Below are positions 24,604 through 62,808 of a DNA stretch of 64,000 nt, one piece after another. The notes under the pieces are model-generated. The model searched no databases. It was not told where the DNA came from and saw only the letters and a program-made list of their open reading frames with translations. Source of the stretch: Escherichia coli (lineage in GTDB: Bacteria; Pseudomonadota; Gammaproteobacteria; Enterobacterales; Enterobacteriaceae); the NCBI RefSeq assembly GCF_024223415.1, contig NZ_CP100500.1. One strand, written 5' to 3'. A program made the position numbers and the translations under genes. The first letter of the stretch is position 1. Each line of letters opens with the position of its first letter.

Positions 24604-25188
24604 TTACTCCCTGACAGGGTTCGTAGGCCACTCAATATCAGGTGCAGTTGATGTATCAACACGGTTCAGCAACACCCGATACTTTTTCCAGGCTTCCAGC
24701 AATGAGGTTTCTTCCTCCGTTGCGATTTCCAGATCTACAGCATCCTGAAGTGGCGCAATATGCTCACTGGCTACCTGCATCAGGCTGTTTTTTGTTTCTT
24801 CCGCCTCCCGGATCCGGAACAGTTTTTCTGCTTCTGCATCTTTCACCCAGGCTGTGCCGTTCCACTTCTGAAACTCCCCTTCCGGCGATAACCAGGTAAC
24901 ATTTTCCGGTAACGGACCGAGTTCAGAAATAAATAACTCGTCCCCTGACGCTACGTCATAAACCGTTTTACCCCGATGGTCTTCAACGAGATGCCACGAT
25001 GCCTCATCACTGTTGAAAACAGCCACAAAGCCAGCAGGAATATCTGGTGGTGCAATATCGGTACTGTTTGCTGGCAGACCTGTATGAGGCGGAATATATG
25101 CGTCACCTTCACCAATAAATTTATTAGTTCCGGCCAGCAGATTATAAATTTTTATGGTCCGTGCTTGTTCACTCATTCTGAATGCCAT
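24604..25188 (-). CDS. tail fibre assembly protein (Tfa)
   Basis: 194 aa; immediately downstream of side tail fibre gene; conserved Tfa C-terminus ([16 protein letters not shown]). Confidence 0.85.
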
Positions 25189-55675: not shown

Positions 55676-56065
55676 TCAGGCAGCTGCACCCGCCGTTTTC
55701 TCGTACTTACTGATAGTGATCTCGACCTTCCCTTCCGGGATAACCGGTCCCCACTCCACCAGCATTCTTTTCACCTGACTGTCGTCTTCCCACACCCCCG
55801 CGTGGGTCAGGGCGTCAAACAGCGCCTTGTTATAGTTGTCCAGATCGCGGATCCTGTTATCCGGAGGAAACAACACGATCTCCACTGAAGCAGGTGCCGA
55901 CGTTGGTTTCGGCAGACGACGTAACTGCTCAACTATTGCTGCGCACGCCGCGCTCTGGAATTTTCGCCCCGCCGCGCTTATCAGGCTCTTACCTGCAAAC
56001 GCCCCTTTGTTAGGGTGTCGCCAGTAAGTGTTCACGCTGGGCGGGAAAGGCAGGATAAGCTTCAT
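55676..56065 (-). CDS. rusA: Holliday junction resolvase RusA
   Basis: 129 aa; RusA signature (PPSVNTYWRH...RDLDNYNKALFDALTHAGVWEDDSQV). Confidence 0.9.
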   Translation of the reverse strand: MKLILPFPPSVNTYWRHPNKGAFAGKSLISAAGRKFQSAACAAIVEQLRRLPKPTSAPASVEIVLFPPDNRIRDLDNYNKALFDALTHAGVWEDDSQVKRMLVEWGPVIPEGKVEITISKYEKTAGAAA

Positions 56066-56388
56066 ACTTTCAGGCCCCTCTCATGTAACCAGTGAGTTGC
56101 ACGCAGCCTGGCGTTTTCCTCACCGGCAAGCAGTGCGCGGATAATCCCGGCTGCCTCGCTGTCGTCGTCCTTCACTGTGGTATGAAGCGTGATACCCCGG
56201 GCCACGCCACGCTTTATCGTGATGACGCCTTTTTTCTCCAGTGCGCGAAGATGCTCCACCGCTGCATTCACCGAACGGTATCCCAGCATGGCTGCCACCT
56301 CCTGATTGGTTGGCGGGAAACCACGTTCTTTCTGATAAGAAATCAGCATATCCAGCACCTGCTGCTGGCATTGAGTTAACGTCGTCAT
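56062..56388 (-). CDS. LexA-type winged-helix DNA-binding protein
   Basis: 108 aa; LexA N-terminal-like HTH (LTQCQQQVLDMLISYQKERGFPPTNQEVAAMLGYRSVNAA); ATGA overlaps with neighbours. Confidence 0.6.
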   Translation of the reverse strand: MTTLTQCQQQVLDMLISYQKERGFPPTNQEVAAMLGYRSVNAAVEHLRALEKKGVITIKRGVARGITLHTTVKDDDSEAAGIIRALLAGEENARLRATHWLHERGLKV

Positions 56389-58479: not shown

Positions 58480-58818
58480 CTATTTCCCTGAATTTACGAC
58501 GAAACTGTTCGAGCGGACTGAAGCACTCATGCTCATAGCCTTCGCGGAGGTAGATAACCCGTTGTGTTTCCGGTTCCCAACGAATGACTCTGACGGGCAC
58601 TCCGTAGTGATCTTTGAACCAGCGGTTAACTTGTCGCAAAGGACTGTCTCCTTCTGCCGGTTGAAATCCCCCACAGCCCACTCTGCAAAGCTGTGGGTTA
58701 CAATTTCCCTGTCACCTGGTACATTCACTGCATAGCAATATTCCACCTTCGCTTTTCCACCCGGTACAGGAAGCGCAATCAGTTGCGAGCGACGGTAGTG
58801 TGTTGTTAAACTGTTCAT
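58480..58818 (-). CDS. hypothetical protein (frame uncertain)
   Basis: 112-aa ORF with ATGA start/stop overlap to upstream gene, ending 10 nt before replication gene start; an alternative 73-aa ORF (58460..58681) overlaps in another frame. Confidence 0.35.
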
Positions 58819-59486
58819 GCGTTAGTTTCTCCACAACCAGAAGCAATCGACGCCACGACGCCCGGAGCTGCACACTCGCGGGCGTCATTACTTTCTGAAA
58901 TGCAAAAGATTTTGTAGACCAGTGCTGCATGCTCCTGCAGCTTCGAAATTGAGAGATACAGCTCGTCGTTAATTGCTGTCTTCTCATGCGGTTCCACTAC
59001 ACCGTCTTCGATTGCTGAACGAATCTGTTTTGAATAACTGCCGATCTGTTCAATGACTTCCAGCAGACGCTGGTTAATATCGGCGTTGTCCACATCCTCG
59101 ACGTCAGGAAGAGACACAAAGACGCCATTTGCAGACTGCGCCACAGCGTCAGCAATGAAGTGAGTTCCACCAGCACGTTGCAAAATCATTGCCCATCCCA
59201 GCGGGAAAATCTGATCGCCATCGGCACGAAGGCGGTTAAATAATGCGTTCTCTGTTACATCCAGCCAGTCAGCTGCTTCAGCGTAACCACCCGGCAACTT
59301 TGCGATAGTTTTTCTGACAGCTTTCACGTACCACTCAGGCTGTTTTTCTACTTTCCAGTGATGCTTACCCACGGTTAGCCTCATCGTTCTGTGGTTTCTG
59401 TTAATCGATTTATCCATTAGATTTTTCATAAAGCTCAGGTTTAAATGGCAACCGTCCGCAAGTTCTATATGCAGCTTCTGCTGCAC
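58815..59486 (-). CDS. putative CII-like early regulatory protein
   Basis: ORF directly downstream of cro-like gene; true start probably an internal Met at ~59384-59429 because the longest ORF overlaps cro. Confidence 0.45.
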
Positions 59487-59610
59487 GTCCTTTTGGAATT
59501 AACTGGCCCGGACGGTTTCGCCACTGATAAACGGCTTCAGTTGTTATGCCGAAAAAAGCAGCAACTTTCTCAATACTGCCGAAGTAGCTTTCGATATCGT
59601 CAGTTGTCAT
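59410..59610 (-). CDS. Cro-like HTH regulator
   Basis: 66 aa; divergent from repressor gene; HTH-like segment (VAAFFGITTEAVYQWRNR). Confidence 0.75.
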   Translation of the reverse strand: MTTDDIESYFGSIEKVAAFFGITTEAVYQWRNRPGQLIPKGRAAEAAYRTCGRLPFKPELYEKSNG

Positions 59611-59707
59611 ACGCCCTCCAAACTAAGTTTTGTTAGATGCTAATTACAAATCTATCTTTGGTCAATAAAAACTAAGATTACTTAGCAATTAAAGAAATGG
59701 TGCTCCT
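59611..59707. promoter_or_regulatory. divergent cro/cI control region with two operator-like 14-bp palindromes
   Basis: CTAAGttttGTTAG at 59623-59636 and perfect CTAAGattaCTTAG at 59672-59685 between divergent starts. Confidence 0.55.
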
Positions 59708-60334
59708 ATGGAAACGGTTGGTCAGCGTATAAAAGCTCTGAGAAGAGTTACCAGAACGTCCCAGAAAGAATTGGGTAAATTTTGTGGAGTAAGCGACGTT
59801 GCTGTGGGGTACTGGGAGAAAGACATCAATACCCCTGGTGGGGAGGCACTTTCGAAATTAGCGAAGTTCTTCAATACGTCAATAGATTACATTCTTTATG
59901 GTGCTGAGTTTGAAGGCAAACTCGTCACAAACATGCGCAGAGTTCCTGTAATATCGTGGGTTCAGGCTGGGCAGTTTACTGAGTGCAGGGCAGCAGAAGT
60001 GTTTAGTGAAGTGGACAAGTGGGTAGATACATCATTAAAGGTTGGTGATAACTCATTTGCATTAGAGGTTAAAGGTGACTCCATGACTAACCCTAATGGC
60101 CTCCCAACAATACCAGAAGGCGCAACAGTGATTGTAGATCCAGATGCAGAACCTCGTCATGGAAAAATAGTCATCGCTCGACTTGATGGAACAAACGAAG
60201 CTACAGTAAAAAAATTAGTCATCGATGGCCCTCAAAAGTTTTTAGTGCCATTAAATCCTCGGTATCCCAACATCCCTATCAATGGTAATTGCCTTATCAT
60301 TGGTGTAGTCAAAGGAGTTCAATACGAACTCTAA
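59708..60334 (+). CDS. CI-type repressor (HTH + S24 LexA-like peptidase domain)
   Basis: 208 aa; N-terminal HTH (SQKELGKFCGVSDVAVGYWE); C-terminal catalytic Ser/Lys context (VKGDSMTNP ... KKLV). Confidence 0.9.
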   Translation: METVGQRIKALRRVTRTSQKELGKFCGVSDVAVGYWEKDINTPGGEALSKLAKFFNTSIDYILYGAEFEGKLVTNMRRVPVISWVQAGQFTECRAAEVFSEVDKWVDTSLKVGDNSFALEVKGDSMTNPNGLPTIPEGATVIVDPDAEPRHGKIVIARLDGTNEATVKKLVIDGPQKFLVPLNPRYPNIPINGNCLIIGVVKGVQYEL

Positions 60335-60413
60335 GGCCTCTCTTCTCTAACTAAGGCACCGAACTAAGAAAAGTTTGGTGTTTTCTCTTGCCATAATAAC
60401 TAAGTTAAGTTAG
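60331..60413. promoter_or_regulatory. cluster of CTAAG operator-like motifs just downstream of cI
   Basis: CTAAG at 60331, 60351, 60364 and palindrome CTAAGttaaGTTAG at 60400-60413, same half-site as the cro/cI region. Confidence 0.4.
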
Positions 60414-60564
60414 ATTTTATATCAAAGATAACGAACAGGCAGGACGCCCACGAAGTAGCCGCCTGGGGCATATAAAGTCCAGGATGATTCGTTAGCAACA
60501 AAAAAGCGCCCTACAGGACGCTTAGCTCTTTAACAATCTGGGTATCATCCAACCAATGCAAGAT

Positions 60565-61086
60565 TTAAGGAATCCAAGGCGAATTCAGATCTCGCCCCAA
60601 CTCACGTAATGATCTTGGTCGTTCGTACATCGGATTTTTTTCCATAAGAAATTTATTTTCACAGTGAAGGCAACGGCTTGTAAGAAAATGAGAAGTTTTA
60701 CCTACTGGAAGCGGATGAAGTATCGATTTTATATTTTTGGAATAACAAAGTGGGCACAGATGCACAGTTATTTCTTTTCCACTCACAATTTCATTTTTAG
60801 AGTAAACAAAAGCACCAGAGTCAAGCTGATCAAGGACATATCCTTCTACCTTGGCACAAAAATCTTCAAACTCTGCAATTTTTGCTTTGAGATGCATCAC
60901 CTCTTCATCACGAAGGCGGATCGCATCGCCAAGAGAGAAGCATTCTGCCTGAAGCGTGATTAGTTTGTTCTGGAGTTCAATGGTTGCAGCTTTAACTTCT
61001 GCATCCGTTTTCGCGTCATTAATAACCTTAGCAAGACCGGCAGTCTCCTTTATAGCGGCCATAGCCGCAGACAGTTCAGCTATCAC
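60565..61086 (-). CDS. hypothetical coiled-coil / zinc-ribbon protein beside the immunity region
   Basis: 173 aa; N-terminal coiled-coil-like region; C-terminal CPLC-x24-CLHC; convergent with cI; antisense frame is low-complexity. Confidence 0.6.
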   Translation of the reverse strand: MIAELSAAMAAIKETAGLAKVINDAKTDAEVKAATIELQNKLITLQAECFSLGDAIRLRDEEVMHLKAKIAEFEDFCAKVEGYVLDQLDSGAFVYSKNEIVSGKEITVHLCPLCYSKNIKSILHPLPVGKTSHFLTSRCLHCENKFLMEKNPMYERPRSLRELGRDLNSPWIP

Positions 61087-61373
61087 GTTGAATACTCAGC
61101 TAGTTGTTGGGGATATCCAGATTAACCAAATCCTTGTTGTTGGGGAATAACTAGGTCCACCTCGCCTGATGTGGCTAAAAGCAGGCACATAACAGCTAAG
61201 TATTTTCAACCAGAGAGAATCCTTAGCGTTGTGGTGAATGCGGCTCAGCGCACGCGGGTTAAGGTTGAGGCTGACAGTCGACCTTCTGTGGATACCCACC
61301 CGCCTGGTGTGCAACCTTCGCCAGGCACCGGGAGGCACCCGGCACCACAACTTTATGCTGTGTGTAGTCCTGG

Positions 61374-61418
61374 CGGTACCAGCTTGTACCCTTGCTTCCG
61401 GCTGGTACCGTCCTTTTT
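61374..61418 (+). terminator. strong stem-loop plus U run in the leftward-operon leader
   Basis: Perfect 10-bp stem cggtaccagc / gctggtaccg with 17-nt loop, then tccTTTTT. Confidence 0.5.
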
Positions 61419-61555
61419 ACAAAACAGAGAAGAGCATCACCGGACGACGGGCTCATAACCCAATCCATCCGGGCGGCAGTCACCGCAGGTGTTCTTCTCT
61501 GTTTTGTGGAGAAACTAACCGACCTTGCAGGGTCGATATGATGAGGAGCAGCAAA

Positions 61556-61918
61556 ATGGCTAGCGAACGCAGTACTGATGTGCAGGCATTTATCGGGGAG
61601 CTGGACGGCGGCGTATTTGAAACCAAAATCGGCGCAGTTCTCAGTGAAGTCGCTTCCGGTGTGATGAACACGAAAACCAAAGGTAAGGTCTCGCTCAACC
61701 TAGAAATCGAACCGTTTGATGAGAACCGAGTGAAAATCAAACACAAACTCTCATATGTTCGCCCGACTAACCGCGGGAAAATTTCCGAAGAAGACACCAC
61801 CGAAACGCCGATGTATGTCAATCGCGGTGGTCGCCTGACTATTCTGCAGGAAGACCAGGGACAATTACTGACTCTTGCCGGTGAGCCTGACGGAAAACTC
61901 CGCGCAGCAGGTCGTTAA
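61556..61918 (+). CDS. hypothetical early protein (YfdP-like, unverified)
   Basis: 121 aa from ATG with RBS gaggag; the upstream in-frame extension to 61238 is Arg-rich and judged non-coding. Confidence 0.55.
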   Translation: MASERSTDVQAFIGELDGGVFETKIGAVLSEVASGVMNTKTKGKVSLNLEIEPFDENRVKIKHKLSYVRPTNRGKISEEDTTETPMYVNRGGRLTILQEDQGQLLTLAGEPDGKLRAAGR

Positions 61919-61983
61919 TATCGTTCTTAATAAACTGATTATTTATCTCATCACTGAATATCTTTATATAGTGAGGACTTATT

Positions 61984-62808
61984 ATGTCTCAGAACTTAGA
62001 CGCAACCGCAATTAATCAAATCCATGCCCTTATTTCTGCTCAGGGTGTTAATGAAATTATCAGTAAGATTGGTGCCGATGCTGTGGCATTGCCTGAGAAT
62101 TTCCGCATTCATGATCTGGAAAAACTTAATTTAAATCGCTTCCGTTTCCGTGGTGCGCTTTCCACTGCCAGCATCGATGACTTTACCCGTTATTCTAAAG
62201 ATCTTGCAGATGAAGGCACCCGCTGCTTTATCGATGCCGATAATATGCGAGCCGTCAGTGTGCTTAACCTGGGTACTATTGATGAACCAGGTCACGCAGA
62301 TAACACCGCCACTCTCAAACTGAAAAAGACAGCACCGTTCTCTGCCCTGTTGTCTGTTAACGGCGAGCGTAACTCCCAGAAGTCACTGGCAGAATGGATT
62401 GAAGACTGGGCCGACTACCTTGTGGGCTTTGATGCTAATGGTGACGCCATTCAGGCAACCAAAGCGGCTGCGGCGATCCGTAAAATCACAATTGAAGCGA
62501 ACCAGACCGCTGATTTTGAAGATAATGACTTCAGCGGCAAACGCTCCCTGATGGAGTCTGTCGAAGCGAAGACCAAAGACATTATGCCAGTGGCATTTGA
62601 ATTTAAATGCGTTCCGTTTGAAGGTCTGAAAGAACGTCCGTTTAAATTACGCCTCAGCATTATCACTGGCGATCGTCCTGTACTGGTACTACGCATTATT
62701 CAGCTGGAAGCAGTGCAGGAGGAAATGGCTAACGAATTTCGTGATCTGCTTGTTGAGAAGTTCAAAGACAGCAAAGTAGAAACCTTTATTGGTACTTTCA
62801 CCGCCTGA
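61984..62808 (+). CDS. DUF2303-family protein (YfdQ-like)
   Basis: 274 aa; resembles CPS-53 prophage YfdQ by length and composition; followed by yfdR-like gene. Confidence 0.6.

Follow-up and report, generated by a model that had tools for sequence, protein, structure and literature searches.

Predicted operators with CTAAG half-sites on both sides of the repressor gene in a P22-like prophage switch of Escherichia coli

Introduction

The repressor of phage P22 acts at six symmetric 18-bp operators, whose outer bases it contacts and whose four uncontacted central base pairs it reads through their A/T-dependent shape; a change from T to C at position 3 costs it specific binding (PMC4267663). 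The P22 sites have the form TTAAG-N4-CTTAA. Beyond the stop codon of the P22 repressor gene c2 lie OL3, OL2, the PL -35 element (TTGACC) and, 6 nt further on, OL1, which overlaps the -10 element; boxA, boxB and gene 24 (N) then follow PL. Phage 21 has a c2-like repressor and is grouped with P22 immC. Lambda also has operators on either side of cI and a cassette (imm) that is exchanged as a unit, and its CI protein loops OL to OR (PMC5880393).

A second group of phages, SfV, SfIV and SfII together with mEp460, LLS and CPS-53-type elements, has a backbone of a YmfL-type cII, O and YfdN, with yfdP-yfdQ-yfdR to the left. In the SfV and SfIV annotations, the cro/cI gap is labelled by the authors simply as a 'putative operator region' and no operator is marked after cI, and the SfIV authors state that this phage group has no N (PMC3851460).

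Here, we describe the immunity cassette of a prophage within a 64-kb stretch of E. coli DNA, analysed as a whole (hereafter, the window). The prophage shares the backbone described above and is classed from its sequence as an SfV/mEp460/CPS-53-type lambdoid prophage of E. coli. For its immunity type, the literature that we searched yielded no binding, footprint or transcript mapping. An earlier reading of the DNA, made from the sequence alone (the sequence-only reading), had drawn attention to CTAAG-based palindromes on both sides of the repressor gene. We conclude that these palindromes are very probably the standard OR and OL repressor-binding sets, as predicted for a P22-like prophage switch.

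Results

Palindromes with CTAAG half-sites cluster beside cI

The palindrome CTAAG-N4-(C/G)TTAG (CTAAGNNNNSTTAG) has exactly three matches in the 64-kb window, at 59623-59636, 59672-59685 and 60400-60413, and all three flank cI. The first two fall inside the gap between cro and cI, where the sequence-only reading had correctly placed them, and the third ends 79 bp past the cI stop codon (60332-60334). That reading had also proposed a genome-wide count of the motif as a check on its enrichment. Carried out on the 64-kb window, the count favours a non-random origin, with three palindromes found against 0.07 expected, every one of them beside cI, and none of 100 dinucleotide-preserving shuffles of the window reaching the observed number. 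When a first-order Markov model was trained on the local AT-rich DNA, the chance of the sites on each side was P ~0.004-0.005. An unbiased repeat search recovered an 18-bp repeat, AACTAAG-N4-GTTAGAT, at 59621-59638 and 60398-60415 (89% identity).

The CTAAG pentamer itself is approximately 4-fold depleted in the window (21 copies found, 79 expected from dinucleotide shuffles), which makes the operator clusters even more conspicuous; 12 of the 21 copies lie in 59623-61999. If two mismatches in the palindrome are allowed, one more site keeps CTAAG intact and has a centre made up of A/T alone, at 60364-60377 (CTAAGAAAAGTTTG). All-A/T centres are found in each of these four strong sites, and both of the regions that contain them have a G+C content of 32-33%.

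The OR side: three predicted operators, PR and a candidate PRM

The cro-proximal palindrome, an OR1-like operator (CTAAGTTTTGTTAG, 59623-59636) recovered by both the palindrome and the repeat searches, occupies a position homologous to that of P22 OR1. It abuts the -10 element of PR and so covers the predicted PR start. PR was identified on the minus strand by a consensus promoter scan (59637-59665) and consists of TTGACC (59665-59660), a 17-nt spacer and TAGCAT (59642-59637). It is conserved in LLS, mEp460, Kp4866-6 and P22, and is the predicted promoter for cro and the early-right genes.

Between the two palindromes of the cro/cI gap lies a weak OR2-like operator (CAAATCTATCTTTG, 59647-59660), 24 and 25 bp from its neighbours, which the sequence-only reading had missed. 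It matches the core at 7 of 10 positions (three mismatches). Taken alone such a match is not significant, with 91 sites of up to three mismatches in the 64 kb. At the homologous position in Klebsiella phage Kp4866-6, at the same 24/25 spacing, stands a site that matches that phage's own consensus at 9 of 10 positions, and this supports the weak middle site as a genuine OR2.

The cI-proximal site (OR3-like, CTAAGATTACTTAG, 59672-59685) has perfect palindrome arms and contains the hexamer TAAGAT (59673-59678), a candidate -10 element for PRM. This hexamer is invariant in the window, LLS, Kp4866-6 and P22, and in Kp4866-6 it departs from the CTAAA half-site of that phage's own operators. The consensus promoter scan returned no match for PRM, whose placement comes solely from the invariant TAAGAT. 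The hexamer is the probable PRM -10, and if so, occupancy of OR3 would be expected to stop cI synthesis.

The OL side: two predicted operators around PL

The arrangement beyond cI follows the OL2/-35/OL1/-10 order of P22. A PL promoter detected by the consensus scan (plus strand, 60388-60416) comprises TTGCCA (60388-60393), a 17-nt spacer and TAGATT (60411-60416), and is kept as TTGACC...TAGATT/TAAATT in LLS, Kp4866-6 and P22. The third palindrome, an OL1-like operator (CTAAGTTAAGTTAG, 60400-60413), occupies the PL spacer and the first 3 nt of the -10 element, and the gap between the -35 element and this site is 6 nt in the window, P22 and Kp4866-6 alike. Ten nucleotides upstream of the -35 element stands the degenerate site at 60364-60377, an OL2-like operator whose position equals that of P22 OL2 and of a site in Kp4866-6. 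The proposal of a second operator cluster just after cI, controlling the region downstream, is supported by its overlap with PL, by the P22 geometry and by co-variation with the repressor (see below). On its sequence this cluster is the classical lambdoid OL/PL, with nothing unusual about it.

Besides the third palindrome, the sequence-only reading had counted three further CTAAG pentamers within 80 bp after cI; these lie at 60331-60335 (overlapping the cI stop codon), 60351-60355 and 60364-60368. The pentamer at 60364 turns out to be the left half of the OL2-like site. The other two are lost in mEp460, LLS and many of 83 related loci, and are probably non-functional chance occurrences. A third OL site, equivalent to P22 OL3, was sought and rejected: there is no match at ~19 bp to the left of 60364, and relatives do not conserve the CTAAG at 60351.

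A probable P22-type repressor of altered specificity

The cI gene (plus strand, 59708-60334) encodes a 208-aa repressor with Pfam HTH_3 and Peptidase_S24 domains, and cro (minus strand, 59410-59610) encodes a 66-aa protein of the P22_Cro family (Pfam, 4.4e-11) whose closest solved relative is N15 Cro (2hin). In RefSeq these two genes are named "LexA family protein" and "Cro/CI family transcriptional regulator". The cI protein is 48% identical to P22 c2. By comparison with the PDB, its N-terminal domain matches P22 C2 (5e-10) and its C-terminal domain matches lambda cI (5e-28). Ala87-Gly88, Ser125 and Lys168 are invariant in an alignment with P22 c2 and SfV cI, so that induction by self-cleavage is predicted. 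In the ORF translations, the recognition helix reads VSDVAVGYWE in the window cI, VTDVTIGYWE in Kp4866-6 and VSNVAISQWE in P22 c2. Together these comparisons lead us to regard the window cI, on its sequence, as a P22-type repressor with shifted specificity.

The locus has the hallmarks of a lambdoid switch. Repressor (HTH plus S24) and cro genes are divergent; several related palindromic operators lie between them and overlap PR, and the candidate PRM; a second operator set covers the outward promoter PL beyond cI; operator sequence co-varies and is co-inherited with the repressor; and the Ala-Gly site and Ser/Lys dyad of RecA-stimulated self-cleavage are present in the protein sequence. The closest likeness is to P22 immC, with which the window shares the divergent repressor and cro, a 14-bp core palindrome in which the central 4 bp are uncontacted, a PR -10 element abutting OR1, TAAGAT within OR3 and a similar PL leader with boxA. 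OR start-to-start spacings are 24/25 bp in the window and Kp4866-6 and 23/25 bp in P22, and the OL2-like and OL1-like starts are 36 bp apart in the window and Kp4866-6 compared with 35 bp in P22. The window differs from P22 in having no OL3 equivalent, in the distance from OR3 to the cI start (22 nt with a GGTG Shine-Dalgarno sequence, compared with 2 nt) and in the half-site, which is CTAAG rather than TTAAG. The CTAA-N6-TTAG core is absent from the P22 locus, and vice versa. All of the window sites carry C at the distinguishing position, and the immunity specificity of P22 and 21 (TTAAG half-sites) is therefore not found here. This difference is exactly the position 3 T to C change, and since C at that position abolishes binding of the P22 repressor, the window phage should be heteroimmune to P22 and 21.

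Relatives for the study of co-variation were taken from a tblastn search of phage records with the cI N-terminal domain. Kp4866-6, whose repressor is 47% identical to that of the window in this domain, has CTAAA-N4-TTTAG at all five homologous positions: in its cassette (L086), three OR positions lie in 1415-1477 and two OL positions in 2179-2228, around TTGACC...TAGATT. SfV has a backbone in common with the window but an unrelated repressor N-terminal domain. Its operators are of TGTAC type, with three at OR and two after cI beside a TTGACA promoter. SfIV shares with SfV both the TGTAC-type operators and a cI/cro pair that differs from the window's, while the OR/OL architecture and PL leader of the SfV group are as in the window. 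The immunity type of mEp460, LLS, 689R6 and 569R4 is identical to that of the window. As read from these sequences, each type of repressor has its own palindrome (CTAAG, CTAAA, TTAAG, TGTAC), found at OR and OL alike, while the layout stays the same.

Conservation and limits of the exchanged cassette

The cassette is ~99.5% identical in vB_EcoM-689R6 and vB_EcoS-569R4, 95% identical in mEp460_4F5 and 77% identical in LLS. Of 5426 complete E. coli genomes, 516 (~10%) contain it at 80% query coverage or more. Conservation was surveyed in 83 related loci and in alignments with mEp460 and LLS. Across the 83 loci, the CTAA/TTAG cores of 59623-59636, 59672-59685 and 60400-60413 show no substitutions while the flanking bases vary; for 60400-60413 this result covers those related loci whose alignment is free of indels. 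Six of the 83 loci have a changed OL2-like site, which is conserved in LLS, where the cassette is 77% identical overall. No base is fixed at the innermost position of the right half-site, which has G in the OR1-like site of the window, A in OR1 of most relatives and C in OR3. An IMG/VR search with cI gave 80 loci among the matches listed, all of them 99-100% identical, which are informative for conservation and not for co-variation.

Sequence to the left of ~59397 is common to many phages of other immunity, and sequence to the right of ~60430 is found in ~1525 of the 5426 E. coli genomes compared with 516 for the whole cassette. From these shared flanks and the rarer cassette between them, the exchanged unit is placed at ~59397 to 60429. 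It would comprise exactly cro, OR, cI and OL/PL, the classical 'imm' region, with its right edge at about the predicted PL start.

The PL leader and the genes downstream

The leader of the PL transcript (plus strand, 60430-60541) is common across immunity types, including SfV and Kp4866-6, and resembles the P22 nutL leader. It contains a hairpin (60504-60523) followed by an exact rrn-type boxA (GCTCTTTAACAA, 60525-60536), the only exact copy in the 64-kb window. Unlike in P22, the leader lacks boxB and gene 24 (N). N/nut antitermination of the PL operon does not fit the locus, which has no boxB after boxA and no N-like ORF on the plus strand, and a search for a nutR boxA found none. The leader (60423-60545) folds no better than shuffled sequences (z = -0.76), and consequently we claim no structured RNA here. 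An Rfam search of 58500-62500 gave nothing in the PL leader, its only match being a sub-threshold one to STnc100 further downstream.

Common sequence stops 5 nt past boxA and is continued by at least six variants among relatives, which points to a cargo-insertion junction. The window has at this place a gene for a 173-aa protein (minus strand, 60565-61086), convergent with PL, and other genes occupy its place in relatives, which suggests a moron or cargo gene. On the minus strand, the leader hairpin makes a good intrinsic terminator for this gene. PL transcription thus encounters a convergent gene and a hairpin before it reaches yfdP. It is conceivable, though we think it unlikely, that N-independent, rrn-like read-through by the host Nus complex alone at boxA carries the cI-controlled PL transcript past the hairpin and antisense over the cargo gene to yfdP-yfdQ-yfdR. 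Were this so, the OL operators would in addition control whether the cargo gene is silenced by antisense transcription when the prophage is induced.

The 173-aa protein matches phrog_1244 (unknown function); its N-terminus is coiled-coil-like, and it carries two CxxC motifs (CPLC...CLHC). Searches with it gave no PADLOC defence-system match and no informative Pfam family. Just upstream of its start on the minus strand is a direct repeat, GTTGTTGGGGATA at 61103-61115 and GTTGTTGGGGAATA at 61136-61149, with a spacing of 33 bp; this could be a regulator-binding site for the promoter of the gene. Further on in the PL direction, in the interval that separates the cargo gene from yfdP, 61198-61421 (plus strand) has a match to the Rfam sRNA family STnc100 (42.4 bits, below the gathering score of 47; E = 5e-7). 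A 2026 preprint ties STnc100 to prophage PasD sRNAs. The RefSeq annotation of strain SCU-105 has a frameshifted hypothetical CDS within this interval.

Discussion

The observations above are, in all likelihood, explained by a P22-immC-type lysis/lysogeny switch in an SfV/mEp460/CPS-53-like lambdoid prophage. We can propose how such a switch would operate. Dimers of cI, combining a P22-C2-like helix-turn-helix domain with a lambda-CI-like self-cleaving C-terminal domain, would recognise ~18-bp sites of the form AACTAAG-(A/T)4-CTTAGnn. Repressor on the cro-proximal and weak middle OR sites would block PR, and with it cro and the early-right genes, while the cI-proximal OR site, lying over the probable PRM -10, would provide negative autoregulation. 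Repressor at both OL sites would block PL, a promoter directed outward from cI to yfdP-yfdQ-yfdR. Cro presumably acts on identical sites in the lytic direction, and SOS-triggered self-cleavage at Ala87-Gly88 would release both PR and PL. Actual binding by cI, cooperativity, the order in which the sites are filled and the location of PRM are inferred.

The sites downstream of cI might instead bind repressor without controlling PL, either as auxiliary looping sites that tune PRM and PR or as the decaying remnant of an interrupted early-left operon. Such a role has some appeal at a locus that lacks an N gene and sets a convergent gene and a hairpin in the path of PL, and where the repressor has a C-terminal domain like that of lambda CI, the protein described above as looping OL to OR. 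This same domain makes OL-OR looping over ~780 bp plausible by analogy; promoter control and looping are not mutually exclusive. Against sites without a function at PL, the PL -35 and -10 elements are conserved from P22 to the window phage and keep their register relative to the operators, the 60400-60413 site is free of substitutions wherever a related locus could be aligned without indels, and the PL leader is retained in ~28% of E. coli genomes. We therefore judge an OL set that leaves PL uncontrolled to be improbable.

Less probable again, and in our view very much so, is that a helix-turn-helix protein other than cI is the main occupant of the palindromes, whether Cro alone or a restriction-modification controller (C) protein of the C.Csp231I type. 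Cro proteins generally use operators in common with their repressor, and the C-box of C.Csp231I, CTAAG-n5-CTTAG (PMC9638921), has pentamer half-sites identical to those of the window and is bound by an XRE-type helix-turn-helix dimer. Its spacer is 5 bp rather than 4, its context is that of restriction-modification and the role of the protein is unrelated, and we therefore treat this likeness as a resemblance of motifs. On either side of the switch, the ORFs and annotated genes include none for restriction-modification; beside the sites stand cI, cro and phage genes. Both the layout and a DNA-binding domain like that of P22 C2 indicate cI, and the co-variation of the operators tracks the cI/cro cassette. 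Chance matches in AT-rich intergenic DNA, for which the low G+C content of the site regions and the two stray pentamers at 60331 and 60351 might speak, are effectively refuted by the number of palindromes (three against 0.07 expected; local Markov P ~0.004), by cores that are invariant in relatives and by homologous positions in P22 and Kp4866-6 whose sequence co-varies.

Set beside lambda, the P22-like switch proposed for the window has operators on either side of cI, a homologous CI C-terminal domain, with the Ala-Gly cleavage site and the catalytic Ser and Lys residues, and an imm cassette exchanged as a unit. It differs in its DNA-binding domain, in the operators (17 bp in lambda) and in having only two OL sites. 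The distance from OL to cI is ~70 bp, compared with 2.3 kb in lambda, a closeness that reflects the lack of rex genes.

The arrangement is the textbook lambdoid OR/OL in its P22 form, and the known workings of such switches are unchanged by this case. The one part for which we found no description is the recognition sequence: our searches of the literature on mEp460, SfV/SfIV and CTAAG operators returned no account of a CTAAG operator for this immunity type. For an immunity type found in around one in ten complete E. coli genomes, the present analysis contributes a predicted operator sequence together with a complete map of OR and OL, of use in prophage annotation, the prediction of heteroimmunity and the design of orthogonal repressor/operator pairs. 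Furthermore, P22 (TTAAG), the window (CTAAG) and Kp4866-6 (CTAAA), with their layout fixed, form a natural series in which the specificity of a helix-turn-helix domain drifts one base at a time.

Some minor observations were made elsewhere in the window, in which no tRNA genes were found. The only Rfam family above its gathering score is IS009, at 24647-24845 on the minus strand (229 bits). In a nin-like region, 56062-56388 (minus strand) encodes a 108-aa protein, around half the length of cI, that RefSeq names 'LexA repressor' and whose translation contains no S24 peptidase-type sequence. This phage protein may resemble LexA closely enough to disturb SOS control.
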